DNA of 51,167 nt from a virus. Numbering within the stretch: position 1 is the first letter of the stretch; every line of letters begins with the position of its first letter. Location of the stretch: the IMG/VR virus record IMGVR_UViG_3300044462_000123; one strand, written 5' to 3'. Made by a program: the position numbers and the translations under genes. Shown here in pieces: positions 2,194-51,167 of this stretch. The notes under the pieces were generated by a model. It was not told where the DNA came from. It did no database searches and was given only the letters and a program-made list of their open reading frames with translations.

Positions 2194-2528
2194 TCGACGA
2201 GGCTACGTACTACGGGGGCTCTCTCAAGAAGACGCTGGCCGCCGAGTACCACATTAGCCCGCGCAGGGAGCGCTTCGGGCACTTCGACGCGACGGGCTCC
2301 AACTTCGCCGTGCGCCTGCCTGACGCGACGCAGTTGCGCACGGGGCTCGACACGATGCTGGTGGCGGCCTTCACCAACACGCTCACGGTCAAGGACAAGA
2401 CCGGCGCCACGCTGACGACCATTGGGGTCGATCGAGTGAAGCGCTTCCACCTGCTCGACAACTCCACAGCCGCCGGCGTCTGGCACTTCAGCGCGGGCTT
2501 GGCCGTGAGCCTCGGGACAGCCGTCTAG
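2190..2528 (+). CDS. Hypothetical protein (112 aa) between the g12-like and g13-like genes
   Basis: ATGA overlap with the upstream stop and TAGTG overlap with the downstream start. High GC3. Confidence 0.6.
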   Translation: MIDEATYYGGSLKKTLAAEYHISPRRERFGHFDATGSNFAVRLPDATQLRTGLDTMLVAAFTNTLTVKDKTGATLTTIGVDRVKRFHLLDNSTAAGVWHFSAGLAVSLGTAV

Positions 2529-3427
2529 TGCCAGCCACCATCGCCCCGCCGTGCGCCGCCCTGCTGGAGCAGAAGACCCTGCGCTTCGCGTATCTGTGGG
2601 CGATCCTGCGCGCGGATGGCGTGCTGCTCTTCTTCACGGACCACAACGCCCCGCTCGTGTTCGGCGGGTTCACGTTCTACCCGGGCGGCTTCGACGCCTC
2701 GGCGCGGCGCGCGGACGGCGGGCTGGAGACGCACAGCCTGTCGCTCGAGGGCATGATCCAGTCGGGCGACATCGCGGTCGCCGACCTGCGCTCAGGGCGT
2801 TACGACGAGGCGCAGATCTTCGAGTACCTCGTCGACTGGCGCTACCCGTGGGCTGGCGCGATTCGCACCAGGACGTGGTGGATCGACTCGGTGTCCTTCG
2901 ACGGCCAGCGCTGGTCGGCCGAGACGTCGGGGCTCGTGCGCTTCCCGCAGGTGCCGACCGGCAAGCTGCTGGCGCGCACCTGCTACTGGAAGCTCTACGA
3001 GAACTTCGGCGTGTCCGGCAAGGCCGGCTGCAAGCTGGACCCGGCCGCGTTCACCTTCACGCCGATCGCGGTGGCTGTGGTCACCGACCCGCGACGCATC
3101 TTCACCTGCGACACCGGCATCACGGGCTCGCTGGGCGCCGACTACTTCGCCGATGGCCGCGTGACCTGGCTGACCGGGCCCAACGCGGGCGTTGTCTCCG
3201 AAGTCGCCACGCACAACGACCACGCGGGCGGGCTCTACACCGTCGAGCTGTACGTGGAGACGGACTTCGACATCGCGGTCGGGAACACGTTCACGATCAC
3301 GGCCGGCTGCGACAAGCTTTTCTCGACCTGCAAGGCGAAGTTCAACAACGTGGTGAACTTCGGCGGCGCGCCCAAGAAGCCACGCGCGGGCGACCTACTC
3401 AAGATCGCGAAGACGCCACAGTCGTGA
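2528..3427 (+). CDS. Tail hub protein, RcGTA g13-like (DUF2163 plus phage BR0599-type C-terminus)
   Basis: LRFAYLWAILRADGVLLFFTDHNAPLVFGG..FYPGGFDASA and the C-terminal CDKLFSTCKAKFNNVVNFGG motif. Synteny with the g12/g14/g15-like genes. Confidence 0.85.
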   Translation: MPATIAPPCAALLEQKTLRFAYLWAILRADGVLLFFTDHNAPLVFGGFTFYPGGFDASARRADGGLETHSLSLEGMIQSGDIAVADLRSGRYDEAQIFEYLVDWRYPWAGAIRTRTWWIDSVSFDGQRWSAETSGLVRFPQVPTGKLLARTCYWKLYENFGVSGKAGCKLDPAAFTFTPIAVAVVTDPRRIFTCDTGITGSLGADYFADGRVTWLTGPNAGVVSEVATHNDHAGGLYTVELYVETDFDIAVGNTFTITAGCDKLFSTCKAKFNNVVNFGGAPKKPRAGDLLKIAKTPQS

Positions 3428-3855
3428 CGGAGACGATGCATACCCGCCAGGACGTGGTCGACCTGACCCGGAGCTGGATCGGCACGCCGTGGGTCCATCA
3501 GGGGCGCCGCGCCGGCGTCGGCCTCGACTGTGTCGGCCTCATCACCAGCGCGCTGGCCGTGCTGGGCGAGCCGACGAGCGACTACACGTGGTACCGGCGC
3601 GCGCCCGAGGGCGACAACCTGCTGCGCGAGATCCGCGCGCGCTTCGTCGAGCTGCCGGCGCCTGAGCCCGGGTCGCTGCTCGTGTTCTTCATCCGCAGCC
3701 GGCGCGTGGCCCAGCACATCGGGCTCCTGACCTACGACGGCACCATCGTGCACGCCAACGCCGCCGCCGGGCGCGTGTGCGAGCAGCCCTACGACGCCGA
3801 GTGGCAGCGCCGCACGCTCGCGGCCTTCGACCTCACGCGGAGGGCCACCGCGTGA
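3424..3855 (+). CDS. NlpC/P60-family cell-wall peptidase, RcGTA g14-like (tail-associated)
   Basis: WIGTPWVHQGR..GLDCVGL (Cys) ... AQHIGLL (His) ... IVHANA. GTGA overlaps at both ends. An alternative start is ATG 3436. Confidence 0.85.
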   Translation: MTETMHTRQDVVDLTRSWIGTPWVHQGRRAGVGLDCVGLITSALAVLGEPTSDYTWYRRAPEGDNLLREIRARFVELPAPEPGSLLVFFIRSRRVAQHIGLLTYDGTIVHANAAAGRVCEQPYDAEWQRRTLAAFDLTRRATA

Positions 3856-6494
3856 ACTACGTCGGCGATACCTTCCGGTTCGGCGGGACGCTCTTCAGCT
3901 ACATCCCTGGCGTCGGCGGCCCGTTCGAGAAGCTGTTCGACGCCGCCGGGCAATACTTCGATCCGCAGTCGCGCATCTCGGCGCGCCCGATCAAGGAGTT
4001 CGGCGTCAACTCAGGCGAGCCGTTCTCGCCGCTGGACCTCCCTTTCGGCCCGTCGGCTCCCGTCGACGGCGTCGTCGCGTACATCGGGCCGATCACGAAG
4101 AAGAAGGTCAGCACCACGAGCGGTAAGGGCGGCGGCTCGCAGACCGTCGACAGCTACCAGTACTTCGCGGACGTGGCGATCGACTTCTGCGAGGCGCCCG
4201 ACGGCGGCATCGTCGAGTACACGTCGCTGTGGGCTGACGGGCAGTTCGTCTACGGCCAGAACCCGGACCAGAACGAGACGAGCGACGAGCTGGCGCTCGA
4301 GGTCGTGACCCTGAAGGGCAAGACCTTCGTCGACATCAGCAGCCCGCTCGGCGGCCCGAACCTGAAGAAGTTCAAGCCCTCGGGCGACTCGGTCGTCATG
4401 ACGGGCTGGGCGACGGGCGGCAACAACATCACGGCCGACCCCGTGTCGTCCAAGAAGAAGAAGAGCGACGGCACCAGCATCCTGCGCCTGCTGGTCGCCC
4501 CCGCCGATGCCGCGGGCGTCGCCGACGAGGCCGCCGGCTCGACCGTGACGCTCTTCCAGGCGAACCAGAAGAGCAACCTGAACGACCTGGCCGACGTCGA
4601 GCTGTACCTCGGGACCGACAGCCAGATCGCCTCGCCGGCCATCGAGGCCAACGAGGGCACCGGCAACGTCGAGGCCGCGCGCGGCCGGTGCCGCGTGGTC
4701 ATCAACAAGCTCTACCTCAACAAGTGGGGCAACCGCGTCCCGATGTCATGGCGCGCCGTCGTCCAGGCCCACGCCTCGCTGACGCTCGCTCAGGCCATCT
4801 CGGGGCTGCTGCTGCGCGGCGGGCTGACGGCCGGGCAGTTCGACGTCACCGGGCTCACGGGCGACGTGCAGGGCTTCGTCCTGCGTGCAGGCGACGCCCC
4901 GGCCAGCATGGTCGTGGCCCTCATGATGGCCTACGACCTCATGGCGCGCGAGGTGTCCGGGCAGCTCGTGTTCTTCCATCGCGAAGATGCCCCGCACGTC
5001 ACCGTCGGGGCCGAGGACCTCGGGGCCCACGCGGCCGACGAGAGCCCGCGGCGCGAGATCGACCTCGAGCGCTCCCCTGCGCTGGACCTGCCCAGCGACG
5101 TCCGCGTGTCCTTCCTCGACCCGACCAAGGACCTGCAGCAGTCCGACGCGCGCCAGCAGATCGCCAACGCCACGACCCAGGCCAGCGTCTCGGTCAACCT
5201 TCCGATCGTGCTGGACCCCGAGGACGCGCGAGCCATCGCCAAGCGGCTGGCCTGGATGCCGCGAGCCACACGGCACGAAGCCACGTTCAACTGCCCGCCG
5301 TCGCGACAGGATATCGTCGAGGGCGACGTTCTCGACGTCACGGCCCACGGCGAGGCCTGGCACCTCGTGGCCCAGCGGGTCGAGGCAGGCAAGAGCGGCA
5401 TCGTGGCCGTGCGGGCCCAGTCCGACAACACGGGCGTGGTCTCCGTCGCGCCCATCGCCGGCAGCGACGACGACAGCGACTCGCTGCAGGTGCCGCCACC
5501 GATTGCGCTGGACGTCATGGACATCCCGGCCATCACGCCCGAGCACGTGCTCCTGCCGGGCCGGTACTTCGCGCTGGCGCTGTACGACACCGAGCAGCCG
5601 TGGCCCGGCGGCGTGGTCTACGAGAGCACAGACGATGGCGACAGCTTCCTGCCGATCGCGCTGGCGCAGACCGAAGCCATCGCGGGCTACGTCTCGGCCG
5701 TAGCGGTGTCGGGCTCCAGCGGTGGCGGTCTGGTGTGGGACCTGCGCTCCAGCTTCACCGTCACGATCTGGAACGGCGAGCTGGAGTCGATCTCCGAGGC
5801 CGACGCGCTTGCGCTGCACAACCTCGCGGCGCTGCGCACGCCGGGCGGCGAGTGGGAGCTGATCATCTTCCGCAACGCCACGCTCATCGGCACCACGAAC
5901 CTCGGGCACAAGGAATATCAGGTTGACACGATCCTGCGCGGCGTGCGCGGGACCGAGTACCTCATCACGACGATCACCGCCGGGTCGGCCTTCGTCCTGC
6001 TGGAGCCATCGCAGTTCTCGCAGGGGTTCATCGCGGACCTCGGCACCGAGCGGCTGTACAAGGCCGTCCCAAACGGCGGCGCCTCCTCCGACTTCAGCGA
6101 CACCGAGGAGCTGACGGTGGCGCTGCACACGCTCACGCCGTGGGCACCGACCCTCATCAGTATCACCCCGGACGTCATCTTCCCACTCCTCGACGGATCG
6201 CGTGACGAGACTTTCGTCTGGCATCGCCGGACGCGCGCGTTCACGGACCCACTCGAGCCGGACCAAGTGACCCTCGCCGAAGAGGTCAACGAGTTCTACG
6301 TCGACATCTACGTGTCCGGCGGGTTCGTGCGCACCGAAATGGTCCCCGGCGGCGACGACGGCGAGACGACGTGGACCTATACGGCCGCGGACCAGATCAC
6401 CGACGGGGCGAACCCCACGGATATCGGGACCGTCATCATCTACCAGCGCAGCACCTCGGTCGGGCGGGGCTCACCGCTCGGCCCGCTCGGCTGA
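3852..6494 (+). CDS. Host-specificity / central tail-tip protein, RcGTA g15-like (gpJ-like)
   Basis: 880 aa in the g15 position. Contains SYQYFADVAIDFCEAP..GIVEYTSLWADGQ, as in phage tail protein (Phage-tail_3-type) families. Confidence 0.8.
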   Translation: MNYVGDTFRFGGTLFSYIPGVGGPFEKLFDAAGQYFDPQSRISARPIKEFGVNSGEPFSPLDLPFGPSAPVDGVVAYIGPITKKKVSTTSGKGGGSQTVDSYQYFADVAIDFCEAPDGGIVEYTSLWADGQFVYGQNPDQNETSDELALEVVTLKGKTFVDISSPLGGPNLKKFKPSGDSVVMTGWATGGNNITADPVSSKKKKSDGTSILRLLVAPADAAGVADEAAGSTVTLFQANQKSNLNDLADVELYLGTDSQIASPAIEANEGTGNVEAARGRCRVVINKLYLNKWGNRVPMSWRAVVQAHASLTLAQAISGLLLRGGLTAGQFDVTGLTGDVQGFVLRAGDAPASMVVALMMAYDLMAREVSGQLVFFHREDAPHVTVGAEDLGAHAADESPRREIDLERSPALDLPSDVRVSFLDPTKDLQQSDARQQIANATTQASVSVNLPIVLDPEDARAIAKRLAWMPRATRHEATFNCPPSRQDIVEGDVLDVTAHGEAWHLVAQRVEAGKSGIVAVRAQSDNTGVVSVAPIAGSDDDSDSLQVPPPIALDVMDIPAITPEHVLLPGRYFALALYDTEQPWPGGVVYESTDDGDSFLPIALAQTEAIAGYVSAVAVSGSSGGGLVWDLRSSFTVTIWNGELESISEADALALHNLAALRTPGGEWELIIFRNATLIGTTNLGHKEYQVDTILRGVRGTEYLITTITAGSAFVLLEPSQFSQGFIADLGTERLYKAVPNGGASSDFSDTEELTVALHTLTPWAPTLISITPDVIFPLLDGSRDETFVWHRRTRAFTDPLEPDQVTLAEEVNEFYVDIYVSGGFVRTEMVPGGDDGETTWTYTAADQITDGANPTDIGTVIIYQRSTSVGRGSPLGPLG

Positions 6495-6506
6495 CACGGA
6501 GGCCTC

Positions 6507-8528
6507 ATGACCGAGACAATCAATATCCAGGTGCCCCTGATCCCCGAAGGCGCGGTGAAGGGCCACGTCACGCACAACACCGGCATGACGCTGATCGATT
6601 GGGCGCTGCTGGGCAGCCTGAACACGATCACGACCACGAACACGCCGCTCGGCTCGCCCGTCGACGGCGACGCACGCATCATCGGCGGCGCGCCGACGGG
6701 CGCGTGGGCCGGGCATGCCAGTGAGATCGCGGTCTATCTCAACGGCTGGCACTTCATCGTGCCGATCGAAGGCCTGCAGCTCTGGGCCGAGGACACCAAT
6801 AAGCAATACGTCTACGACGGGTCGGCGTACCAGCAGGTGTACCCAAGCGGCGGCGGCGGGTCGACGCCGACGGGGACTGGCTTCCGGCACGTCACGGGCG
6901 GCGTCGAGGACGCGGCGGCCAAGCTGGTCGACACGGCGGACATCAACAATGCGCAGGTCACGCTCGCGAAGATGGCGGACCTGGCGCAGGACCTCTTCAT
7001 CGGCCGCACGACGGCGAGCACTGGCGTCCCACAGACGGCGACGATCACAGCGGCGGCGCGCACCGTACTCGACGACACGACCGTTGCCGCGATGGTCGAC
7101 ACGCTGGGCGGCGCGTCATCGACGGGCTCCGGTGGCCTTGCACGCGAGACGAGCCCGGCGTTCGTCACGCCGGCGCTCGGAACGCCGGCATCCGGCAATG
7201 ACCGCAACCTCGCGAGCCACGGCGCCGACGTGGCCTCCTCCGGGACGATCGACCTGGACGCCGCGACTGGCGTGGTGGTGGATGTTACCGGCACGACGAA
7301 CATCACCGCGATCACACTGGCCGACGGCAAACGGCGCATCTGCAGGTTCACCGGAGCTCTGACGCTCACCAACGGCGCCTCGCTGGTGCTGCCTGGCGGC
7401 GCCAACCTGACGACGGTGGCCGGCGACTACGCCATCTTCGCCGGGTACGCCGCGGGCGTCGTCCGTTGCGTCGCCTTCGCCCCGGGCAAGCTGCCGATCG
7501 CTCTCGGCGGCACGGGCGCCGTGACGGCTGGCGCAGCGGCGACCGCGCTGGGTGTCGGCACTGGCGACTCGCCGCAGTTCACCGCCGTCAACGTCGGCCA
7601 TGCCACCGACACGACGGTCGACCGCGCCAGCGCCGGCGACATCCAGGTCGAGGGCAACCGCATCTTCCGCGTCGGCGGAACCGACGTGCCGGTGGCAGAC
7701 GGCGGCACGGGGCAGAGCTCCATCATCGACGCGATGGATGCGTTCCACACGAAGAGCAGCGACATCGCCTCGGCCGCCACCACGGACCTGTCGACCGCGA
7801 CGGGCCTCTACGTTGACGTCACCGGGACCACGGACATCACGGCGCTGGGCACCGAGGCTGCCGGCGTGATCCGGCGCTGCCGCTTCACGGGCGCGGGGCT
7901 GACGGTCACCCACAACGCGACGTCGCTCATCATGCCGGGCGAGGCCAACTTCCGGACAAGCCCGAACGACATCTTGGAGTTCGTCAGCCTCGGCAGCGGC
8001 AACTGGCAGTGCGCGAACATCCCGCCGCCGCTCGAGCACACCTCGCGCCTGAACGCCGACTACACGCTGACCAGCACGATATCTGCACAGGTGCTCCTCG
8101 TGGCTGGTCAAAATACCTTCACGCTGCCGCTCGGCGTCTACGAAGTGAACCTGTTCATCTGCATCGACACCATGTCGGGCACCTCCGGCAATGCGTCCTT
8201 CAGCCTGCTCGGGGCGGGCAGCGCGACGGTATCTAATCCGCTGTGGCTCAACTTCGGCAACGATCTCGCCGGGAGCGCTGGTGGTGGCGCGGCGGGGGGC
8301 TGCTGGCAAGCCAACGTCGCCAACGGCGGCGCCAATGCCATTACCGCTGCCACGAATACGGGCATGTCCATGCTTGGGAGTGGCACCATCGACGTAACAG
8401 GAGCCGGCACCTTGATTCCCAGCATTACGCTCGTCACGGCTGCCGCTGCAGTCGTGCGCCGTGGATCGTTCATTCGCTTCCGGCTCATCGGCCCGAGCGC
8501 GATGACCAAGCGCGGCAAGGTGAGCTGA
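6507..8528 (+). CDS. Tail fibre protein with DUF2793-like N-terminal domain
   Basis: N-terminus GHVTHNTGMTLIDWALLGS...AWAGHASEIAVYLNGWHFIVPIEGLQLWAEDTNKQYVYDGSAY resembles DUF2793. Gly/Thr/Ala-rich fibre-like body with an internal duplication. Confidence 0.75.
   Translation: MTETINIQVPLIPEGAVKGHVTHNTGMTLIDWALLGSLNTITTTNTPLGSPVDGDARIIGGAPTGAWAGHASEIAVYLNGWHFIVPIEGLQLWAEDTNKQYVYDGSAYQQVYPSGGGGSTPTGTGFRHVTGGVEDAAAKLVDTADINNAQVTLAKMADLAQDLFIGRTTASTGVPQTATITAAARTVLDDTTVAAMVDTLGGASSTGSGGLARETSPAFVTPALGTPASGNDRNLASHGADVASSGTIDLDAATGVVVDVTGTTNITAITLADGKRRICRFTGALTLTNGASLVLPGGANLTTVAGDYAIFAGYAAGVVRCVAFAPGKLPIALGGTGAVTAGAAATALGVGTGDSPQFTAVNVGHATDTTVDRASAGDIQVEGNRIFRVGGTDVPVADGGTGQSSIIDAMDAFHTKSSDIASAATTDLSTATGLYVDVTGTTDITALGTEAAGVIRRCRFTGAGLTVTHNATSLIMPGEANFRTSPNDILEFVSLGSGNWQCANIPPPLEHTSRLNADYTLTSTISAQVLLVAGQNTFTLPLGVYEVNLFICIDTMSGTSGNASFSLLGAGSATVSNPLWLNFGNDLAGSAGGGAAGGCWQANVANGGANAITAATNTGMSMLGSGTIDVTGAGTLIPSITLVTAAAAVVRRGSFIRFRLIGPSAMTKRGKVS
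7227..7478 (+). repeat. Tail-fibre internal protein repeat, copy A (aa ~241-324)
   Basis: DVASSGTIDLDAATGVVVDVTGTTNITAI...RRICRFTGALTLTNGASLVLPGGAN aligns with copy B. Confidence 0.8.
7758..8021 (+). repeat. Tail-fibre internal protein repeat, copy B (aa ~418-505)
   Basis: DIASAATTDLSTATGLYVDVTGTTDITAL...IRRCRFTGAGLTVTHNATSLIMPGEAN. Confidence 0.8.
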
Positions 8529-41298: not shown

Positions 41299-41379
41299 AG
41301 ACATGGAGGGCCGGCTGCCTTCCGGTGGCAGGCCCCGCGGGCAGCGAGTTGACAGTCGCATGGCGTGGAGGGTGAGCAC

Positions 41380-41925
41380 GTGACGACACGCACGATTCCG
41401 TACTTCGAGGCGAGCGGCGCGCGGCTCGTGAACTCCACGCCGGCGGAGATTGCCGCGGCGGTGGCGCTGGGCTGGCTGCCAGGCTTCGAGTACTCGACGG
41501 GTCCGATCACGGACGCCGACCTGCTGCTGCCGGTGCTCTTCAGCGACAAGGAGCTGCGCGACAAGATCGCCGCTGCTGGCGGGCCGATCTACGACGCCGG
41601 CATGACGTCCGCGCAGCTCGCGATCGCGCTCCTGCGCGTGGCGGGCAAGACGGCCTACGACCGCGTGGAGGTCTCGTCCGTCACGGCCAACACCGGCACC
41701 ACGGCCGGTGGCGACGCGCGCACGATCGCCGGCTTCGGCTTCAGCTTCGGCCGCGGCGGCACGCCGACCGTGACGTTCGGCGGCAACCCGGCGACGTCGA
41801 TCGTCGTGGTGAGCGACACCAGCATCACGTGCGTCACGCCGGCTCACGGCGCGGGCGCGGTGTCGGTCATCGTGGGCAACGCCAACGGCTCGCATACCAA
41901 GGCCTCGGCCTTCACCTACTCCTGA
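41380..41925 (+). CDS. Ig-like (IPT/TIG) domain protein, candidate head decoration or fibre
   Basis: C-terminal VSSVTANTGTTAGGDARTIAGFGFSF..TPTVTFGGNPATSIVVVSDTSITCVTPAHGAGAVSVIVGN is a classic IPT/TIG pattern. Confidence 0.7.
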   Translation: MTTRTIPYFEASGARLVNSTPAEIAAAVALGWLPGFEYSTGPITDADLLLPVLFSDKELRDKIAAAGGPIYDAGMTSAQLAIALLRVAGKTAYDRVEVSSVTANTGTTAGGDARTIAGFGFSFGRGGTPTVTFGGNPATSIVVVSDTSITCVTPAHGAGAVSVIVGNANGSHTKASAFTYS

Positions 41926-41937
41926 TCCGGGGGCGTC

Positions 41938-42465
41938 ATGGCGCACGTCGTCGAGACTGGCTCGGGCCTGAGCAACGCGAACGCGTACCTCTCGGCGGCA
42001 GAGGCGGACCTGTACTGGGCCGACCACGGCGCGCCTGACGACTGGACGGCTGCGCTCACGGCCGAAAAGGAGGAGGCCATCCGGGCCGCCACCGAGGCGC
42101 TCGACGCACTCTACGGCCAGCGCTGGCGCGGCAGCCGCGTGCAGTCCGCCCAGGCACTCGACTGGCCCCGCACGAGCGTCGAGGACGACGATGGCTTCAC
42201 GGTCGAGTCCACCAGTCTGCCGCTGCGCCTGAAGAGCTCCTGCGCCATCCTGTCCTTCGAGGCGCTGACCGGGGGTGGCGAGACCTCCTCCCTCGTGCCG
42301 GACATCACCGACACCGGAGCCCTGTCCGCCCTGACGGAGACGCTGGGCCCGCTCTCGCGCACGCAGCAGTGGGTTGGCGGCCGCAGCCAGGTGAAGTGGC
42401 GCCCCCTGGTCGATGGCCTGCTCCGGCCCCTGATCCTGGCGGGCGGGACGGTCATCCGGGCGTGA
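41938..42465 (+). CDS. Head-tail adaptor (DnaT-like / gp6-like connector)
   Basis: SNANAYLSAAEADLYWADHG...WTAALTAEKEEAIRAATEALDALYGQRWRGSRVQSAQALDWPR. Confidence 0.7.
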   Translation: MAHVVETGSGLSNANAYLSAAEADLYWADHGAPDDWTAALTAEKEEAIRAATEALDALYGQRWRGSRVQSAQALDWPRTSVEDDDGFTVESTSLPLRLKSSCAILSFEALTGGGETSSLVPDITDTGALSALTETLGPLSRTQQWVGGRSQVKWRPLVDGLLRPLILAGGTVIRA

Positions 42466-42824
42466 CCACCGAGCTCGACACCGCCTTCGCCGACATGGCC
42501 CTCGAGATGGTCGAGGCGTTCGGACCGACGGCCATCTTCACCGACGTGCCTGGCACCTACGACCGCGTGACGGGCAGCGCGCCGGCGGGCGCGGTCCTCG
42601 GGCCCTTCAAGGTCTCGCCGCCGTTCCCCTACGAGCAGCGGTACATCGACGGCGACGTCATCCAGCGGCGCGACCTGCGCGTCATCCTGCCGGCGAAGGG
42701 CGCCTTCGTGCCGCTGCTGGGCATGACCGTCTCGCTCTCCGGCGTCTCGCACATCGTGGTGACCGTGCGGCCCTACCAGTCGGGCGACGACATCGCGGCC
42801 TACGAACTGCAGGTGCGCGCATGA
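42462..42824 (+). CDS. Head-closure / neck protein (hypothetical, 120 aa)
   Basis: Synteny between the adaptor and the gp10-like gene. GTGA/ATGA overlaps. Confidence 0.6.
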   Translation: MTTELDTAFADMALEMVEAFGPTAIFTDVPGTYDRVTGSAPAGAVLGPFKVSPPFPYEQRYIDGDVIQRRDLRVILPAKGAFVPLLGMTVSLSGVSHIVVTVRPYQSGDDIAAYELQVRA

Positions 42825-43243
42825 CCGGCACCAGCAACATCGAGGAGTTCAATCGCGAGGTGCAGGCCTGGGCCGAAACGATGCCGGCCAATGTGGTCGT
42901 CACGGCGCAGAAGAAGCTGGCCTTCGACGCCTTCGCCGGCATCGACGACAAGATGCCCGTCGACACGGGGCACGCGCGCTTCAACACGCAGGTCTCCGTC
43001 AACGACTACGCGCGCGGCGAGATCCCAGGCGTCGACCCGACCGGCAGCGTGGCGCGCGGGCGCGCCGAGGCCGCGCTGGCCGACATCCCGCCCTTCGCGC
43101 TGGTCGTGATCCACAACTCCGTGCCGTACATCGAGCGGCTTGAGGGCGGCAGCAGCACGCAGGCCCCCTCCCCCGGCGGCATATTCGACCTCACGGCCCA
43201 CGAACTGCTCGCGACCTTCGACGTCGAAGGCCTGCCCCCGTGA
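42821..43243 (+). CDS. HK97 gp10-like tail completion protein
   Basis: MPVDTGHARFNTQVSVN ... IHNSVPYIERLEGG matches the gp10-like pattern. Confidence 0.75.
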   Translation: MTGTSNIEEFNREVQAWAETMPANVVVTAQKKLAFDAFAGIDDKMPVDTGHARFNTQVSVNDYARGEIPGVDPTGSVARGRAEAALADIPPFALVVIHNSVPYIERLEGGSSTQAPSPGGIFDLTAHELLATFDVEGLPP

Positions 43244-44559
43244 CGACCTACACCGCCATCGCCACGCGCGCCTTCACAGTCAGCCCGGTGCCAGATCACC
43301 CGCACGCGATCCTGAAGGTCTTCCTGCCGAACGGCACGCCGAACCCCGAGGGGCACCCGGCGTGCATCTACAACATCCTCGAGAACGTCATCGACTGCGA
43401 CATGATCGACGTGATCGACGAGAGCCGGCCGGAGCTCGCGGCGATCCTCGATGCCCACAGCGCCCTCATCCTCGTGGCGAGCCCGGTCGCGCGTGGCGAC
43501 AACACGGGCAACACGGAAGCCAGCGTCGCCTACGACCCGGACAACAACCTGTTCGGGCCCAGCTACCGCGGCAACGGATGCAACTGGGCGCCGACGCTGG
43601 GCGTGCCCACGGGCCTGCCGACGGGCACGCATCCGATGGCCGACCCGCTCTGGTTCATGACCATCAAGTCCTACCCGCAGGCGGTGCAGTACGTCGTTAC
43701 GCAGCTCGTGGCCGAGTTCAATCTCGACCCGACGCGGCTGTGGGGCGGCGGCAGTTCGGCGGGCGGCCTCGGCGTGCTCGCGACGATGTGGGGCCCCAAC
43801 CGCGCGCCGCAAATGTTCCCCGGCGGCAGCGGGCAACTCGCGGTCGACACGCGCGCCGCACTGCGTTGCGCAGCGATCGAGCGCACGCAGACGTTCGGGC
43901 CCGTCTTCCAGCAGACCGGCGCCGGATGGTTCTTCCCGCAGGTGCCGGGCACGGGCACCGGCTACAAGGTCAACGCCCCGGGCGGCCTGCCCATCGGCAC
44001 CACCGTGATCCCGGTCGACACCGGCACCGGCACGATCATCAAGGGCGACTTCCTCGTGCTCTCGGGCATCGGCGACCGGCCACGCGTCTCGGTGGGACTG
44101 GCTGGCGGGCAGATCACGATCGCTTCGCCGCTCACCGCGGCGCTGGCCGACAACGCGAACATCACGATCCTGAAGACGTGGGACTGGCCCAGCTTCCCGA
44201 TCTCGATCGGCGACCAGACGAACCTCTTCGAGATGGCGCCGCTCGTCATGGCCGAGGCGCCCGCAGAGTACGCGGACAACGTGGCGAACAAGAAGTGCTG
44301 GATGCGCTACCTCGCGCCCGCGACCGCTGGCGCGCCCTACGACAAAACGCACCTGACCCACGACGAGCCGAACGTCCACAGCGTGTGGTCTGGCCGCGCG
44401 ATGAAGGAGCTCATGGGCACGGGCCTGCGGCTCGTGGTCAACGGCGCCGACGCGGCCGATGGCGTGCACGAGGACGCTGTGATCCTGACCGGCGACGCCG
44501 ACGTCTACGCCGACATGATGGCCACGATCTACGAGTGGCTCGAATACGAGTACCTCGGC
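43240..44559 (+). other. Domain: alpha/beta-hydrolase (esterase)-like, aa 1-440
   Basis: Nucleophile elbow LWGGGSSAGGLG (GxSxG; Ser codon near 43756). Ends at the poly-Gly linker GDGGGGGS (44560-44577). Confidence 0.55.
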
Positions 44560-47500
44560 GACGGCGGCGGCGGTGGCAGCGAGCCCGAGGGGGTCGCCTG
44601 GTACACGCGCATCGACCGGGCGATCCGCCAGCACTTCGGGACTGAGGTGGAGGACGCCCTCGTGATCCCGGCGGTCTACGACAACGAGAGCGAGGCCGTG
44701 GCCCTGGCGTCCGCGCGCTGGGCCCGCGTGCGGGTCGACCACGCGGGCACGAATCAGACGCACTTCGGGTCCATCCCCAAGTACCGGCGCGCCGGAGACC
44801 TCGTCGTCGAATGCCGCTGCCGGGTAGTCCAGGGCGACGGCTCGGCCGTGCAGCTCGCCGACGCGGTCGTGGCGGTCTTCCGCGGCGCCACCGTGGGCGA
44901 CGACGTGAACGTCATCTTCCGGCAGCCGCGCGTCGACGGGCCGCACAGGGACGGCGCCTGGTGGGTTGCGACCGTGCGCGTCCCTTGGTACAGCGACGAG
45001 TCCGTCGAGCACAGCGAGGCCGGCCCGGACGATGCGGCCGCCACGTTCGGCGACATCACCGAGGCGCTGCGGGCGCGCTTCCAGAGCTACGTTGAGGCGC
45101 CCCTAGGGCTGACGACGCAGTACGACGACCAGGCCTTTGCGCCTGAGCTGGGCCAGGCCTGGGCGCGCTTCAGTGTGCTCCTGGGGAGCCAGATCCACCC
45201 CGAGGGCAGCGAGCGGCAGTGGTATCGGCAGATCGGCATGGCGGTGGCCCAGGTCTTCGTGCCGGCTGGGATCGGCCATGGCCAGGCCCTCACCATCGTC
45301 GACACGATCGACGAGGCCTTCCGGTCGACCAGCCAGCAGGGCGTGGTGCTGGGCGAGCCGGCGCTGCGCACGGTTGGTCGCGACGGCGCGTGGTGGCAGC
45401 TCAACGTGACGCTGCCGTTCCAGGCGCCCATCACCGTCGCCGACGACGTGGTCGACAGCATCTACCCCACGGGCTCGCTCTACGAGCCGCCCACGGGCAT
45501 GGTGCTGTACGGCCTCTCGCACTTTCCTTCCGACGCCCTGTCCTACGTGGACGCGCTGGCCAACGGCGTCCCCGGAGGTGGTGGCGGCGGCGGCCCGCCG
45601 TCGGACTACCTGCCGCTGGACGTCAGCGTCGCGAAGGTCATACCGGCCGCGCTGACGGCGTGGACCGACACCGACACGCTCGTGACCTTCGCGGTGCCGC
45701 TGCCCGACCTGCTCGTGGCCGACCTTGCTGGGCGCCCGGAGCTGTCGCTCTCCGGGGCCTCGATCTGGCAGGCCCGCACGCTGCAGAAGTGGCCCAGCGG
45801 CTTCGCGAAGTGGGCGCTCTTCAAGGCGCGGGTCAACCCGGCCACCACCACGACCCTCACGATCAGCGGGTCCGGCGTTGGCAAGTCGGCCGGGTCCGAC
45901 CTCCTGAGCCTGACGGGCGGGGTCTACACGCTCGCCACGGGCGCCGTGACGGCGACGGTGAAGGTCCCGTCCTTCAATCTCTTCGACAGCGTCAAGATCG
46001 GCGCGCTCACCATCATGGCGTCCGGCACGGGCGGCCCAGGCCTCCTCGGCACGATGGCAGACGGGGTGACGGGCCTCGTCATCCGCTCCACGGCGGTCGG
46101 CCGCGTCGAGGACAACGGCCCCGCCAGCGCGTGCCTGCGGATCGACGGCGAGCTGGCGGCCAGCACCGCCCCGACCGTCACGGTGGCGAAGTTCGCATGC
46201 CGCTTCGTTGCGGCCGCGCAGTCGCCGGACATCGCCGTCACGTTCACGGTGCAGAACGACACCTGGCACCTGAACGCCTCGCCCTCGACCGACGACAACA
46301 AGCATCTGCAGCTCGGCTGGGTCGAGATCGGGTTCCGCATCAACGCGGGCGCCAGCCGCACGCTCGTGTGTTGCAACCCTGGCTCCGAGACGGCGCAGAG
46401 CATCGGCGGCGTCGGGCAGCCCAAGGACGTCTACTGCTACCAGAAGTACAGCACGGCAGCGACCACCGACGTCTCGGGCACGGGGCCGGCGTACAAGCCG
46501 CACATCACGAAGGACGGAGCCGGCGTCTTCACGCAACAGGGATGGGAGAAGCGCGACGACAACGTCCTCACCGTGGACCTGCCGGCCGGGAGCTGGCCCC
46601 AGCACGGGTACCTGAACCTGTCCGGCGCGTCCGCGGGCTGCACCATCGGCATCCGGCACATGCCCTTCTTCTGGCCCGCATCGCTGCGCGGGAATGACAA
46701 CGGGTCGGTGGGCGTCGGCCTCTTCCCCCGCTACAACCCGGACAAGTACGTCTTCCCGTGGCGGATGCACGAGAGCCGGGAGTGCGTCTTCTCGTTCCAC
46801 GCCGGACCGATCGGCGCGCTGCCGTCGACCAGCCTTCCGTCGCAGGTCGTCAAGCGCCTCGACTACCCGCTGTACGGGCGTCTCGCCGACTACAGCAAGT
46901 ACGACGCGGCGGGCGTCTTCCCCTATCGGCTGGCGACCATAGCGGAACAGCAGGAGCTCTACACCGCGCTGGGGATCGCGCACACGCCGGCCGTCAGCAA
47001 CGAGAGCATGCAGGTGCTGCGCTTCCGCGCCTCGAGCACGACGGGCGGCGACAACAACCACGCGGCCGGCGAGGTCCGGCTGGTCGACGCGTTCCTGCGC
47101 TACGGCAAGGGCGGGCAGCTCTTCCGCGGCCTCGACATGGCCGTCTACCTCGCCGAGTGGGCCATCCCGCGCTCTTCGGACTTCGCGGACGCGGACGACC
47201 CTGGCGCCAGCAACGACGGGACGCTTGCCCACACCACCGGCACCTTCGACGACGGGAACAGCGACCAGCACCTCTACGACGAGAACATGCTTGACGCCTA
47301 CTTCCTGACGGGCGACGAGCGCCTGCACGCGTCGCTGTTCGACGAGGCCGACGTGCTCGCCGCGGTGACTTTCTCGGTCAACGGCAACGAGCGCGGGAAC
47401 TACCAGTGGTTCCGCGCGGCCTCGCTCGTCGCCGAGTTCCTGGCGGATCAGAGCCCGACGGAAGCGGCGACGCTCAAGGCCTCGCTCAAGGCGCGGATCA

Positions 47501-48993
47501 CGGCGCACTCTGCCACCACAGTGGACGTCGACGCGGTTTCCTCCGGGTCGGGGTGGGACAACGCCACAGCCGGCGCGGGCGCGCGCGGGTACTACGCCAG
47601 CTCGCTGCAGAACCTCGGCGAGCAACTGCCTGGCGAGTTCTTCGTGGCGCGTGGCTTCGTGAGCGCACGCCTCGGTCCCGTCGCCTTCAAGATCACGCAG
47701 CGGTACCTCACCGTGGCCGACAGCGACGGCGTCAAGGCCCAGGGCCGCAAGAAGGACTTGGCCAAGTGGACGAAGAACGAGCTGCTGGCGACGGCCACCG
47801 GCCCGGACGTGCCCGCCGGCATGCTCGGGCAGAAGTGCCTGATCTACAGCTACCAGATCCACCTGCAGACGCCGGGCGCCGACGACGCCAGTCACCCGGG
47901 CGGATTCCAGCACCCCGACTTCCACTCAGTGCTCACGGCTGCGGCTGAGGGGTGGCGCGAGACAGCCGACGCGGCCTACATCGCGATGGGCGTCGCCCAC
48001 ATCGCGGCCTTCGTCGCGGACGGGAACGTCGCCGTGCTTGACTCGGGCCTCGAGGTGCAGGACTTCGTGCAGGCCTACCACGACTTCGTGACGCCGCCCG
48101 AGGAGAGCGAACCGCCCGATCACCTGCCGGGGATCGTGGCCCACGTCTACAACCTCGGGATCAATGATCACCCCGACCCGACCACGGAGCAACTGGTCGC
48201 GGTGCTCGACGAGCTTGACGGCCTCGGCTACGTGCCGCGGTTCGGGATCACGCTGCAAGACCAGACCGGCGACCCGCAGATCCCACTCGACGACGTGATC
48301 GCGACCACGAGCACCTACGACGATCAGATCGACACGCTCGCCCAGGCGCTCGTGGAGTTCGACAAGCCTGTCTTCCTCGCGATCGGGTGGGAGTGCAACG
48401 GCCACTACACCACCGCGTACTACCCTGCCGCGTTCCGCAAGATCGTGGACATGGTCCGCGCCGCGGGCGCGACCAAGGTCGCCTTCGTGTGGGGCATCGA
48501 GGCCACGCCCGCCAGCAACTACGACGACTGGTATCCGGGCGACGCCTACGTCGACTGGTTCGCCGTCGACGTCTTCCGCAAGGACAAGTACCTCACCGCC
48601 GGGCACCCGGTGAACACGCACTTGGTGACCTTCCTGGCCTACGCGGTGGCGCACAGCCGTCGCGTGATGCTGCTCGAGGCCGAGGCCGTGGGTGAAGACA
48701 TGCCGGGCGGCACGATCTTGCCCGATCCCGCGGACGGCACGGCGCAGTACGCCTACTGGTTCCACGCGTTCTTCGCGCTGCTCGCGGCGAACCCGATCAT
48801 CGGGTGCTTCGAGTACACGAACCAGGACCTGACGGGCAGCGGGTACGACGTGCCCGGCATGGGCTGGAAGAACGGCAGACTCGACGTCAACAGCGACGTC
48901 TTCTTGCCCTGGGTCGCAGAGATCAGCCAAGAGAAATACATCGACTCGTCGCGGCGCGACCTGCTGCTGCACTGGTCAGAAAACCACGGTTAG
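43240..48993 (+). CDS. Giant multidomain virion protein (1,917 aa): esterase-like + 2 x tail-terminator-like + unknown ~840-aa region + GH26-like glycosidase
   Basis: Single uninterrupted high-GC3 ORF. GTGA overlap with the gp10-like gene, and the tail tube gene starts 13 nt after its stop. Domain evidence is given in the sub-features. Confidence 0.85.
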   Translation: MTTYTAIATRAFTVSPVPDHPHAILKVFLPNGTPNPEGHPACIYNILENVIDCDMIDVIDESRPELAAILDAHSALILVASPVARGDNTGNTEASVAYDPDNNLFGPSYRGNGCNWAPTLGVPTGLPTGTHPMADPLWFMTIKSYPQAVQYVVTQLVAEFNLDPTRLWGGGSSAGGLGVLATMWGPNRAPQMFPGGSGQLAVDTRAALRCAAIERTQTFGPVFQQTGAGWFFPQVPGTGTGYKVNAPGGLPIGTTVIPVDTGTGTIIKGDFLVLSGIGDRPRVSVGLAGGQITIASPLTAALADNANITILKTWDWPSFPISIGDQTNLFEMAPLVMAEAPAEYADNVANKKCWMRYLAPATAGAPYDKTHLTHDEPNVHSVWSGRAMKELMGTGLRLVVNGADAADGVHEDAVILTGDADVYADMMATIYEWLEYEYLGDGGGGGSEPEGVAWYTRIDRAIRQHFGTEVEDALVIPAVYDNESEAVALASARWARVRVDHAGTNQTHFGSIPKYRRAGDLVVECRCRVVQGDGSAVQLADAVVAVFRGATVGDDVNVIFRQPRVDGPHRDGAWWVATVRVPWYSDESVEHSEAGPDDAAATFGDITEALRARFQSYVEAPLGLTTQYDDQAFAPELGQAWARFSVLLGSQIHPEGSERQWYRQIGMAVAQVFVPAGIGHGQALTIVDTIDEAFRSTSQQGVVLGEPALRTVGRDGAWWQLNVTLPFQAPITVADDVVDSIYPTGSLYEPPTGMVLYGLSHFPSDALSYVDALANGVPGGGGGGGPPSDYLPLDVSVAKVIPAALTAWTDTDTLVTFAVPLPDLLVADLAGRPELSLSGASIWQARTLQKWPSGFAKWALFKARVNPATTTTLTISGSGVGKSAGSDLLSLTGGVYTLATGAVTATVKVPSFNLFDSVKIGALTIMASGTGGPGLLGTMADGVTGLVIRSTAVGRVEDNGPASACLRIDGELAASTAPTVTVAKFACRFVAAAQSPDIAVTFTVQNDTWHLNASPSTDDNKHLQLGWVEIGFRINAGASRTLVCCNPGSETAQSIGGVGQPKDVYCYQKYSTAATTDVSGTGPAYKPHITKDGAGVFTQQGWEKRDDNVLTVDLPAGSWPQHGYLNLSGASAGCTIGIRHMPFFWPASLRGNDNGSVGVGLFPRYNPDKYVFPWRMHESRECVFSFHAGPIGALPSTSLPSQVVKRLDYPLYGRLADYSKYDAAGVFPYRLATIAEQQELYTALGIAHTPAVSNESMQVLRFRASSTTGGDNNHAAGEVRLVDAFLRYGKGGQLFRGLDMAVYLAEWAIPRSSDFADADDPGASNDGTLAHTTGTFDDGNSDQHLYDENMLDAYFLTGDERLHASLFDEADVLAAVTFSVNGNERGNYQWFRAASLVAEFLADQSPTEAATLKASLKARITAHSATTVDVDAVSSGSGWDNATAGAGARGYYASSLQNLGEQLPGEFFVARGFVSARLGPVAFKITQRYLTVADSDGVKAQGRKKDLAKWTKNELLATATGPDVPAGMLGQKCLIYSYQIHLQTPGADDASHPGGFQHPDFHSVLTAAAEGWRETADAAYIAMGVAHIAAFVADGNVAVLDSGLEVQDFVQAYHDFVTPPEESEPPDHLPGIVAHVYNLGINDHPDPTTEQLVAVLDELDGLGYVPRFGITLQDQTGDPQIPLDDVIATTSTYDDQIDTLAQALVEFDKPVFLAIGWECNGHYTTAYYPAAFRKIVDMVRAAGATKVAFVWGIEATPASNYDDWYPGDAYVDWFAVDVFRKDKYLTAGHPVNTHLVTFLAYAVAHSRRVMLLEAEAVGEDMPGGTILPDPADGTAQYAYWFHAFFALLAANPIIGCFEYTNQDLTGSGYDVPGMGWKNGRLDVNSDVFLPWVAEISQEKYIDSSRRDLLLHWSENHG
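44593..45000 (+). other. Domain: tail-terminator-like (DUF4128-type), copy 1, aa ~452-587
   Basis: IDRAIRQHF...IPAVYDNESEAV...ARWARVRVDHAG...YRRAGDLVVECRCRV.QGDGSAVQLADAVVAVF...GAWWVATVRVPWY. Confidence 0.65.
45040..45429 (+). other. Domain: tail-terminator-like (DUF4128-type), copy 2, aa ~601-730
   Basis: ITEALRARFQSYV...TTQYDDQAFAPELGQAWARFSVLLGS...YRQIGMAVAQVFVPAGIGHGQALTIVDTIDEAF...GAWWQLNVTLPF. Confidence 0.7.
45607..48114 (+). other. Region of unknown function, aa ~790-1625 (first half beta-rich-looking, second half helix-rich-looking)
   Basis: Begins after the GGGGGGG linker (45574-45594). No family recognised by eye. Confidence 0.4.
48127..48990 (+). other. Domain: GH26-like (clan GH-A TIM-barrel) glycoside hydrolase, aa ~1630-1917
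   Basis: KPVFLAIGWECNGHY (acid/base Glu codon at 48391-48393), AFRKIVDMVRAAGATKVAFVW, DDWYPGDAYVDWFAVDVF, RRVMLLEAEAVG (candidate nucleophile). Confidence 0.6.
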
Positions 48994-50227: not shown

Positions 50228-50641
50228 ATGAAGTTCTACCAGGCCATGATCGACCCGGAGCTAGACCGCGAGGGTCGCTGGGCCGAGTTCGTGCCCGGGA
50301 TGCGTTTCCGCATCGCCCGCATGGACAACAAGCGCGCCCTCGACAGCCACCGGCAGCGGCTGGCCGACGAGCAGGCGCGCGTCGGGCGCGCCAAGATCGC
50401 GCCCGAGGTGCTGGGCGAGATTGCGCTCGAGACCCTCGCGCGGCATGTGCTGCTGGGGTGGGATGGCGTGGACGACGCCGACGGCAAGCCCATCCCGTAC
50501 AGCCCGGAGAAGGCGCTGGAGTTCCTGCGCGACGAGCGGTGCCGCGACCTGCGGCGGTTCCTCGAAGAGGCCGCGAGCGACGCGGCCGCGTACCACGCCT
50601 CGGCGAGGAAGGACGCCGAGGGAAACTCGCGGAGTGCCTGA
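50228..50641 (+). CDS. Tail assembly chaperone (gpG-like)
   Basis: Position between the tube and tape-measure genes. Contains the slip site near its 3' end. Confidence 0.8.
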   Translation: MKFYQAMIDPELDREGRWAEFVPGMRFRIARMDNKRALDSHRQRLADEQARVGRAKIAPEVLGEIALETLARHVLLGWDGVDDADGKPIPYSPEKALEFLRDERCRDLRRFLEEAASDAAAYHASARKDAEGNSRSA

Positions 50642-50960: not shown

Positions 50961-51167
50961 GTGCCGACTCTCGAGCTGGCGATTGACGCGCGGAGGGCGC
51001 GGTACGGCGCCGACGACTTCGCGTCTGCGACGGACCGCGCCAAGGCCTCCGCCACCGGCGCCGCTGGCGCCACCGAAAAGTTCACCGTCGCGATCGAGGG
51101 CCACTCGCGGGCGCAGCACGCGCTGCAGCGCGCCCTCGACGTGTCGGGCAACCTGGCCAAGGGATTC
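50961..51167 (+). CDS. Tape measure protein, 5' portion (continues at position 1 via the circular junction)
   Basis: GTG 50961 lies 2 nt after the GT-product stop and is in frame with 2-1222 through the 127-bp overlap. Confidence 0.75.
   Translation, partial: MPTLELAIDARRARYGADDFASATDRAKASATGAAGATEKFTVAIEGHSRAQHALQRALDVSGNLAKGF
51041..51167. repeat. Terminal direct repeat, copy 2 (identical to 1-127)
   Basis: Exact identity read base by base. Confidence 0.95.

Follow-up and report, generated by a model that had tools for sequence, protein, structure and literature searches.

The sole tail terminator of this phage was found to be a giant protein, residues 452-732 of which are a tandem pair of gpU-like terminator domains of family PF13554 (D1 and D2). 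The reading that is best supported, plausible but unproven, is that three such chains would form a six-domain terminator ring on a three-fold tail tube, with enzyme cargo at the neck, and we consider this fairly probable. The window, which is the whole stretch of 51,167 nt that was analysed, is the complete, circular genome of a siphophage (~51 kb), with a 127-nt terminal repeat and continuity of a reading frame across the junction. Its G+C content is 70%, from which a high-G+C bacterial host may be guessed. The features discussed are listed in Table 1.

Table 1. Positions of the neck and tail genes and of the modules of the giant ORF in the window
Feature	Position (nt)	Strand	Evidence or remark
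Head-tail adaptor (Ad1)	41938..42465	+	PF20557 E 1.4e-28; PHROG 477 E 4.5e-37
Head closure/stopper (Hc1), 120 aa	42462..42824	+	PHROG 161 E 4.5e-13; gene call in contig L002
Tail completion/Neck1 (Tc1)	42821..43243	+	PHROG 169 E 2.9e-26
Giant ORF, 1917 aa	43240..48993	+	Sole tail terminator of the phage; enzyme modules (the N-terminal one putative) on either side
N-terminal cargo module, aa 1-441	43240..44562	+	GSSAG (GxSxG motif) at aa 171-175
Gly5 tether, aa 442-446, N-terminal module to D1	44563..44577	+	Read from sequence
Terminator domain 1 (D1), aa 452-590	44593..45009	+	PF13554, 33.2 bits, E 6.6e-8
Inter-domain linker, aa 591-600, inside lower-confidence 589-602	45010..45039	+	pLDDT 71, model residues 151-160
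Terminator domain 2 (D2), aa 601-732	45040..45435	+	PF13554, 44.6 bits, E 2.1e-11
Spacer, aa 733-778, and Gly7 tether, aa 779-785 (nt 45574-45594)	45436..45594	+	Exit to C-terminal cargo
Middle cargo region, aa 786-1649 (~860 aa)	45595..48186	+	No family assigned
GH26 glycoside hydrolase domain, aa ~1650-1901, C-terminal	48187..48942	+	Sequence match
Tail tube protein, 397 aa	49006..50199	+	PF18906 E 2.1e-22
Tail assembly chaperone	50228..50641	+	PHROG 313 E 3.1e-18; PF27119 on called gene
Tape measure gene start	50961..51167	+	Continues over the circular junction to 1222; ~433 aa (contig L002 gene call)

A tandem terminator within a giant ORF

The genes of the neck and tail are in the order Ad1, Hc1, Tc1, giant ORF, tube, chaperone, and tape measure. 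Tc1 lies directly upstream of the giant ORF and overlaps it by 4 nt. With Tc1 before it and the tube gene after it, the giant ORF sits in the terminator slot. When all six frames of the genome were scanned, no terminator domain was found outside the giant ORF. No sheath family was found either, and the genes for tube, chaperone, and tape measure come immediately after the terminator gene. The set of neck genes is the same in genomes with tandem and with single-domain terminators and, therefore, D1 is not a substitute for a lost component.

A preliminary description of this region had placed a repeat between codons 452 and 730 of the ORF (positions 44593 and 45429). Both the coordinates and the repeat were correct, and the domain boundaries were found to be slightly wider (452-590 and 601-732). 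The pattern that it had noticed is present in both copies, which share the motifs YDN/YDD, WAR, YR..G, G.G, A..F, GAWW, and PW/PF, and the pairwise alignment that it had proposed as a check gave 28% identity over 131 residues (E 7e-13). Its association of the pattern with DUF4128 also held. Each copy on its own passes the curated cut-off (27 bits) of PF13554 Phage_tail_terminator_5, formerly DUF4128, over profile positions 2-127 of 127, and together the copies match PHROG 179, ‘tail terminator’, in two stretches (E 5.5e-43).

The tandem core was modelled by AF2 as one rigid unit (pLDDT 92.6, pTM 0.90; model residues 1-5 below pLDDT 50). D1 is built as a helix, two strands, a helix, and further strands, mostly with pLDDT above 95, and the terminator fold, a four-stranded sheet with two flanking helices, is present in both domains by AF2 and Foldseek. 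Each half superposes on solved terminators, those of FCWL1 (9jlf_D, TMt 0.84) and T1 (9l0e_N, TMt 0.85), with further structural matches to 2gjv, 2l25, and lambda gpU, and a TMt of 0.92 for PhiJL001 gp77. The PF13554 matches and the TM values of 0.84-0.85 thus place the segments in the terminator fold rather than in an unrelated one. Both domains retain the Arg, YDN, and G-D signature conserved in single-domain relatives. As judged from mean identity to those relatives (34% for D2 vs 28.5% for D1), D2 is the copy closer to single-domain terminators.

The single-domain terminators of lambda (gpU), T5 (p142), T1/FCWL1, and PhiJL001 (gp77) share with the tandem pair the fold, the signature, the place in the gene order (after the tail completion protein and before the tube) and, for the PF13554 members, the sequence family. 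Presumably they also share the job of halting tube polymerisation and offering a docking face to the head. They differ in being chains of ~130-160 aa that form hexamers, whereas here the two copies lie in a single long chain with a predicted copy number of three.

The cargo was identified to different degrees. The N-terminal module is possibly an alpha/beta-hydrolase esterase, a putative assignment for which the single family match, to BD-FAE, was weak and below the Pfam threshold (E 0.24). A homologous module stands before the tandem terminator in two family representatives, P0002 and P0006. In the middle region, a PcRGLX-like polysaccharide-lyase sandwich is weakly suggested around aa 955-1008 by a sub-threshold match to PF21345 (E 0.024). 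Neither of these modules had a match in PDB, PHROG, or NCBIfam. The C-terminal module matched GH26 enzymes over ~250 residues (AlXyn26A 7xjr, E 3.9e-17; beta-1,3-xylanase 2ddx, E 4.2e-12) and the GH26 profile PF02156 (E 4.4e-5; 23.4 bits for the isolated segment vs a cut-off of 20.2). By these sequence matches, it is the sole firmly identified enzyme in the giant ORF. A likeness of aa 237-314 to a stretch of the capsid gene of Microcystis phage Me-ZS1 was set aside, the likeness being absent from the phage’s own capsid protein.

Relatives of the tandem terminator and their cargo

An exhaustive search of representatives returned 1236 matches at E <= 1e-3. Among the best 150 of these cluster representatives, 107 were tandem, and 5 more of the 150 were recognised as tandem once a sensitive profile was used. 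The tandem terminator is, therefore, a family and not unique to this phage, which answers the call in the preliminary description for a database search for tandem-terminator fusions. The gene context of the relatives was taken from exact-protein look-ups.

Within this family the tandem pair is nearly always at the extreme C-terminus, either bare or after N-terminal cargo of up to ~1500 aa. Bare tandem proteins of 260-300 aa fill the same terminator slot in relatives. Since 104 of the 107 tandem relatives among the best 150 of the 1236 matches stop no more than 8 residues past D2, the C-terminal exit of the giant ORF is exceptional; it is the only intact protein among the 107 with a long C-terminal extension. 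The linker of the giant ORF is ~10-14 aa long, compared to a family median of 20 aa for the gap between matched domains. When nearest neighbours were compared, D1 went with D1 in 80 of 99 cases and D2 with D2 in 85 of 99, and this clustering points to one old duplication. The possibility that cargo is confined to tandem forms was ruled out by P0134 and P0140, which are single-domain terminators with cargo of 535-620 aa.

Other searches returned few relatives. The phage collection held only one related genome, deposited twice (MW202657 = MW202864). A word-indexed protein search with a 300-aa tandem as query gave no match, the same kind of search with a 40-sequence profile gave only 8 proteins, and a locus search of genome contigs gave no confirmed relative. 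The PDB sequence profile search returned single-domain terminators only. No description of a trimeric, tandem, or duplicated terminator was found in the literature searched, and none in the PDB searches.

The preliminary description had reasoned that the duplication would reconcile a hexameric terminator with glycan-degrading tail enzymes that are typically trimers. This rationale was not supported: 43 of the 107 tandem terminators (best 150 of 1236 matches) are bare, without cargo, so the duplication is not for matching trimeric enzymes. Also, GH26 is not known to need trimerisation, and three cargo arms set ~120 degrees apart around the tail axis could not easily meet. A better rationale for the duplication is a one-to-one fit with a three-fold tube.

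Copy number of the terminator chain

By its model, the tube protein of this phage consists of two fused tube domains, as in T5 pb6 and P74-26 TTP. The AF2 model (pLDDT 86.7, pTM 0.85) gave Foldseek matches to 8xan_A (TMt 0.89), the P74-26 tube 8ed0_A (TMq 0.61, TMt 0.69), T5/DT57C pb6, and T5 p140. The duplicated tubes of P74-26 and T5/DT57C form trimeric rings (PMC11784142, PMC12407722), and the tube modelled here is predicted to form trimeric, three-fold rings as well. A PF18906 tube lies directly downstream of the tandem terminator in all six contexts examined. Duplication and fusion of a domain, with three chains giving a pseudo-hexamer, is the route taken by T5 pb6, P74-26 TTP, and T5 p140, and likewise by the phage’s own tube, although these proteins make the tube and not the cap and differ from the giant ORF in kind and in job. 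A three-fold tube need not have a three-fold terminator, since the cultured relatives Pan1, R5C, and PaMx74 have the same tube family and single-domain terminators. In T5 and P74-26, phages with trimeric tubes, six single-domain chains make up the terminator (PMC11784142, PMC12407722).

We infer that three chains would place their six domains side by side, as D1-D2-D1'-D2'-D1''-D2''. Both kinds of junction would be the ordinary head-to-tail lateral interface of terminator rings, and the last ring of the tail tube would be capped with three-fold, pseudo-six-fold symmetry. Since three chains of fused double domains are also predicted for the tube, terminator and tube chains would pair one to one, and D1 and D2 could each become specialised for a different one of the two tube sockets. 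The free ends of the ring would serve as attachment points. At the N-terminus, Gly5 would carry the putative esterase-like module and, at the C-terminus, the spacer and Gly7, which are unusual in the family, would carry the 860-aa region and GH26. Three enzyme arms would be displayed at the head-tail junction and may be active there.

Mean-field covariation was used to look for contacts between the domains, with ~100 effective sequences from the best 150 of ~1200 family members. The top pairs within each domain form sensible antiparallel ladders. The strongest coupling between domains joins Asp533 of D1, in the GDG loop before helix 2, with Arg611 of D2, in helix 1. Its mirror pair, Arg463 of D1 with position 680 of D2, was also found, and the two pairs rank 1 and 3 among ~14,000 cross pairs. 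A second mirrored set is formed by 533/629 and 481/680. The coupled pairs of helix-1 and GD-loop positions show no coupling inside a single domain. Arg is present at 611 in 64 of 64 sequences with Asp at 533, and permutation gave p < 0.0005 for both cross pairs, a result that shared ancestry could inflate. Twelve shuffles that broke the pairing of D1 with D2 gave top cross-domain scores of 0.77-1.22, compared to 1.09 observed. Because the cross-domain scores are not above the shuffles, the evidence is limited to reciprocity and the contingency tables, both of which shared ancestry could inflate. The lateral interface described for the T5 terminator hexamer is made by the sides that bear helix 2 and the N-terminal helix, which are the same surfaces as those coupled here. 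As far as such sequence patterns go, the reciprocal couplings favour an alternating D1-D2 ring, and a closed pseudo-two-fold D1:D2 dimer would also give them.

The preliminary description had suggested a six-domain ring from three chains on the basis of domain count. This suggestion is now also supported by the double-domain tube of the trimeric type, by the adjacency of tube and terminator in six of six contexts, and by the reciprocal couplings, but not by coupling strength, which lies within the shuffle range.

Another possible arrangement, which we think rather unlikely, has six chains and twelve domains, with one domain (probably D2) forming the canonical hexamer ring and the other a stacked ring or collar. 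It implies six enzyme arms per virion. All the terminator assemblies compared are hexamers, even where the tube is trimeric as in T5 and P74-26, and two-domain hexamers exist. The latter are known from the contractile systems phiCD508 (gp53) and PVC16, which have two terminator-like domains per chain, as here. D2 is also more conserved than D1 and nearer to single-domain forms, and P0134 and P0140, with their large N-terminal cargo on a single domain, suggest that six cargo copies are apparently tolerated. However, homotypic rings predict couplings within one domain type, whereas the pairs of helix-1 Arg and GD loop couple across types in both directions. D1 retains the full ring-forming signature, and the set of neck genes is complete, with nothing left for a second ring to replace. 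The extra part of phiCD508 gp53 and PVC16 handles the sheath, and in this phage an outer domain would find no sheath to attach to. The geometry differs as well. Although phiCD508 gp53 gave the best Foldseek E-value for the tandem model, over all 300 columns, the superposition on 9gb5_H was poor (TMq 0.29, TMt 0.31, rmsd 15.9 A), and the domains are placed differently.

It is improbable, in our estimation, that D1 and D2 instead close into a pseudo-two-fold dimer within one chain that serves the enzymes as, for example, an adaptor or a carbohydrate-binding scaffold instead of being part of a ring, with capping achieved otherwise. A two-fold interface would likewise be expected to give reciprocal couplings (a with b', b with a'), and the homologous-position pairs 92/239 and 134/278 (model numbering) score high. 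Against this, the gene is exactly in the terminator slot of a genome with no other terminator domain, the bare tandems fill that slot in relatives, and the signature of ring-forming single-domain relatives is intact in D1 and D2 alike. Furthermore, the coupled surfaces are opposite lateral faces in the T5 hexamer description, which fits a cyclic contact and not a two-fold one. Finally, a sequencing-error fusion or other artefact of assembly or annotation, which could be suspected because no other intact protein among the 107 tandem relatives has a long C-terminal extension, or a chance likeness of the two repeats, is very improbable given a reading frame without interruption and with GC3 of 0.93 over the entire 5.75 kb, an identical 1917-aa protein called on independent metagenome contigs from other samples, poly-Gly tethers between the modules as is typical of real fusions, the E-value of 7e-13 between the copies, and a score above the Pfam threshold for each.

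A proposed modular terminator at the neck

Host- or environment-facing appendages at the head-tail junction include the T4 whiskers and the lactococcal neck passage structures. The collar protein of P74-26, which encircles the terminator ring, is likewise an extra module at this junction. These known neck and collar appendages are separate proteins that bind to the neck, whereas the cargo described here is covalent to the terminator and includes a recognisable glycoside hydrolase.

For the lineage as a whole, we lean slightly towards the following combined reading. A widespread lineage of uncultured siphophages would have a terminator ring of three two-domain chains that doubles as a modular display platform. 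At the neck, each chain would present up to ~1500 aa of cargo for binding or cutting glycans, in three copies per virion. Three-fold symmetry would hold along the whole tail, with tip, tube, and cap included, and would give way to six- and twelve-fold symmetry only at the interface of terminator and neck. Only the phage studied here would have cargo on both the N- and C-terminal sides of the terminator pair.

Terminators of this family can bear very large fusions, and this marks the neck as a site for glycan-active modules, where engineered cargo might also be displayed. The bare members of 260-300 aa, such as P0003 with 278 aa, are small, well-predicted targets for structural work. The usual view is that every terminator is a hexamer, also in T5 and P74-26, where the tube is three-fold and each identical terminator subunit must suit two different tube sockets. 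A natural experiment is provided by close relatives that share the tube family, some of which have a single terminator domain and others a tandem. If the three-chain ring is true, duplication and fusion would have reached the tail cap for the first time in this two-domain terminator, which would reveal how the change of symmetry between tail and head can be shifted.

Terminator gene and its neighbors

An exact copy of the first 127 nt (1-127) closes the window at 51041-51167, which marks the window as a complete genome of ~51.04 kb, either circular or terminally redundant. Genes run in the order capsid, IPT/TIG protein, adaptor, head closure, tail completion, giant ORF, tube, chaperone, tape measure, and tail tip. 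The tail tip module contains a DUF2460 distal tail protein, a gp84_N+BR0599 hub, Phage-tail_3+Rcc01698_C, and a DUF2793 protein, and the phage is long-tailed and non-contractile. The tape measure (~433 aa) is shorter than those of related loci L003, L008, L009, and L010 (878-1083 aa), which suggests, from gene length, a short tail. Between tail completion and terminator, some genomes with tandem terminators (L009, 5267-5997; L010, 4627-5998) carry two or three extra small genes that are not in the window. The gene between those for capsid and adaptor (41365-41925) encodes a 186-aa product whose C-terminal domain is IPT/TIG (Ig-like) and which may decorate the head or neck.

The giant ORF, with a GC3 of 0.93 and G+C distributed over codon positions as in a genuine gene (genome 70% G+C), occupies the exact terminator slot, between the tail completion and tube genes. 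The preliminary description had placed a tandem repeat of DUF4128-type terminator domains at 44593-45429. These positions are codons 452 and 730 of the ORF, and the repeat was upheld when the two segments were aligned to each other (28% identity over 131 residues, E 7e-13). The family assignment also held: the first (D1) and second (D2) segments separately passed the 27-bit cut-off of PF13554 (Phage_tail_terminator_5, formerly DUF4128), each matching the full profile, and together they matched PHROG 179 'tail terminator' in two stretches (E 5.5e-43). Two tail-terminator domains in tandem are confirmed. Since a six-frame scan with the domain profile found no further terminator domains elsewhere in the genome, the giant ORF product is predicted to be the phage's only terminator.

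Features of the giant ORF and its gene neighborhood (aa, residues of the giant ORF; other positions, nt of the window)
Feature	Position	Strand	Evidence or remark
Head-tail adaptor	41938-42465		
Head closure protein	42462-42824		
Tail completion protein	42821-43243		directly before giant ORF
Giant ORF, 1917 aa	43240..48993	+	ORF list
N-terminal module	aa 1-441		GSSAG motif at aa 171-175
Gly5 run, tether of N-terminal module	aa 442-446		
D1	aa 452-590	+	PF13554, 33.2 bits
D2	aa 601-732	+	PF13554, 44.6 bits
Spacer, 46 aa			directly after D2
Gly7 run	aa 779-785		after spacer
Region of ~860 aa			between Gly7 run and GH26; sub-threshold PcRGLX-like hint, E 0.024
GH26 domain, C-terminal	aa ~1650-1901		7xjr, E 3.9e-17
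Tail tube, 397 aa	49006-50199		PF18906
Tail assembly chaperone			after tail tube
Tape measure gene, ~433 aa	50961-51167 -> 128-1222		spans circular junction
Tail tip module	1225-8528		GTA/PhiJL001 type

Tandem terminators as a family

Searched exhaustively, 1.84 billion cluster representatives yielded 1236 matches (E <= 1e-3), of which the best 150 supplied the family counts. Two domains were present in 107 of these 150, and a more sensitive profile added five tandems. In the 107, the gap between the domains was short (median 20 aa), and D2 ended 2-8 residues short of the C-terminus in 104. N-terminal extensions were 60 aa or less in 43 of the 107 and over 600 aa in 18, with a maximum of ~1500 aa. 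Pfam gave few matches on the extensions: right-handed beta-helix and ConA-like lectin twice each, and GH26 once. Of the intact tandems in the best 150, the window protein alone continued into a long C-terminal extension, of 1187 aa. Its N-terminal module, which was also found in two other proteins from the search (P0002 and P0006), matched BD-FAE esterase weakly (E 0.24). Within this module, aa 237-314 (43948-44181) shared 40% identity (E 5e-6) with part of a Microcystis phage Me-ZS1 gene annotated 'P22 coat-protein 5 family'; this segment did not resemble the window phage's own capsid protein and may be a small mobile insertion domain. P0134 (757 aa) and P0140 (671 aa) are single-domain terminators with 535-620 aa of N-terminal cargo. 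In P0098 (387 aa), a truncated second domain is followed by an Ig-like segment, and this protein may be chimeric, or its gene may be frameshifted.

D1s resembled D1s (nearest neighbor in 80/99) and D2s resembled D2s (85/99), suggesting that the two copies arose once, long ago, and have diverged since. D2 was closer than D1 to single-domain terminators. The signature of helix-1 Arg, YDN, and G-D was kept in both copies and is conserved in single-domain relatives.

Predicted structure and reciprocal couplings

An AlphaFold2 model of the tandem, built from a 40-sequence alignment of tandem relatives, had a mean pLDDT of 92.6 and a pTM of 0.90. Each half consisted of a helix, two long strands, a helix, a short strand, and two long strands, and the high pTM suggests that the halves pack in a fixed way. 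With Foldseek, each half matched solved single-domain terminators in the PDB, including FCWL1 (9jlf_D, TMt 0.84), T1 (9l0e_N, TMt 0.85), 2gjv, 2l25, lambda gpU, the GTA terminator, and T5 p142; the best predicted viral structure was PhiJL001 gp77 (TMt 0.92). The lowest PDB E-value belonged to phiCD508 gp53, a 272-aa, hexamer-forming, two-domain myophage terminator. All 300 columns were aligned, but the superposition was poor (TM 0.29, rmsd 15.9 A), suggesting that the two proteins have domains in common but differ in domain arrangement. The sequence profile of the tandem retrieved only single-domain terminators from the PDB.

Mean-field direct coupling analysis was conducted with 109 tandem sequences (~102 effective). 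The top intra-domain pairs formed consistent antiparallel ladders and, thus, the analysis carries some signal. The strongest pair between domains joined D1 Asp533, in the GDG loop capping helix 2, to D2 Arg611 in helix 1 (giant-ORF codons), and its mirror, D1 Arg463 with D2 position 680, ranked third of ~14,000 cross pairs. A second mirrored set was 533/629 and 481/680. The same position pairs inside one domain scored approximately zero. Asp at 533 occurred in 64 sequences, every one of which had Arg at 611, and where the Arg was lost the acid was usually lost too; permutation gave p < 0.0005 for both cross pairs compared to 0.02-0.08 for within-domain pairs. The surfaces coupled here are those reported for the lateral interface of the T5 terminator hexamer, in which the helix-2 side of one subunit faces the N-terminal side of the next (PMC12407722). 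Since 12 shuffles that broke the D1-D2 pairing gave largest cross-domain couplings of 0.77-1.22, compared to 1.09 observed, coupling strength is no evidence; only the reciprocity and the residue tables count, and both may be inflated by shared ancestry. One contact made both from D1 to D2 and from D2 to D1 fits the prediction of an alternating ring, D1-D2-D1'-D2'. If each domain type formed a ring of its own, stacked or concentric, couplings would be expected within one domain type, with no mirror image.

Three chains or six

The closest solved relative of the tube is the SH-Ab15497 major tail protein (8xan, TMt 0.89); the tube model (pLDDT 86.7, pTM 0.85) matched this protein along its full length, as it did the P74-26 tube (8ed0, TMq 0.61/TMt 0.69), T5 and DT57C pb6, and T5 p140. 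T5 pb6 and the P74-26 tube are two fused tube domains that form trimeric pseudo-six-fold rings (PMC11784142, PMC12407722) and, from these matches, the window tube is predicted to combine two fused tube domains in one chain and to have three-fold symmetry. A PF18906 tube gene (384-427 aa) followed the tandem gene directly in each of the six tandem contexts examined. Three-fold symmetry in the tube does not impose the same symmetry on the cap, since T5 and P74-26 have hexameric single-domain terminators atop trimeric tubes (PMC11784142, PMC12407722), and single-domain terminators of ~136 aa occur in relatives with the window's tube family (cultured Pan1, R5C, and PaMx74; metagenomic L011).

On balance, we lean toward a trimer, with three chains per terminator ring. 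A double ring of six chains, for which the T5 and P74-26 hexamers are a precedent, seems less likely: the mirrored couplings count against homotypic rings of either kind and, since neck genes are the same in genomes with single-domain and tandem terminators, the extra domain is no substitute for a lost ring. A closed two-fold D1:D2 dimer, which would also be expected to show reciprocal couplings, is less probable still.

The preliminary description saw the duplication as reconciling hexameric terminators with trimeric glycan-degrading enzymes. This rationale is not supported, since 43 of the 107 tandems in the best 150 of 1236 matches lack cargo, some single-domain terminators also bear large cargo, and three arms that leave a ring encircling the tail axis would be widely separated. 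The only firmly identified enzyme is the GH26 domain, a fold that presumably works as a monomer. A better rationale for the duplication is that it would supply one terminator chain per chain of the three-fold tube. This match could leave D1 and D2 free to specialize, one for each of two different tube sockets; in P74-26, one bivalent terminator loop must serve both (PMC11784142).

Precedents exist for the terminator fold, for duplicated and fused tube domains, and for neck appendages. Neither the PDB (sequence profile and Foldseek) nor the searchable literature yielded a siphophage terminator that is tandem or trimeric. In the phage collection searched, tandem terminators, which are common in metagenomes, were absent from cultured phages, and in the sole related genome on deposit the gene is labeled hypothetical. 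What is new is the combination of a duplicated terminator, probably trimeric, that serves as a cargo platform. Under any assembly model, the head-tail junction would display three or six copies of the modules per virion, and local digestion of capsule or matrix glycans is a plausible role for them.
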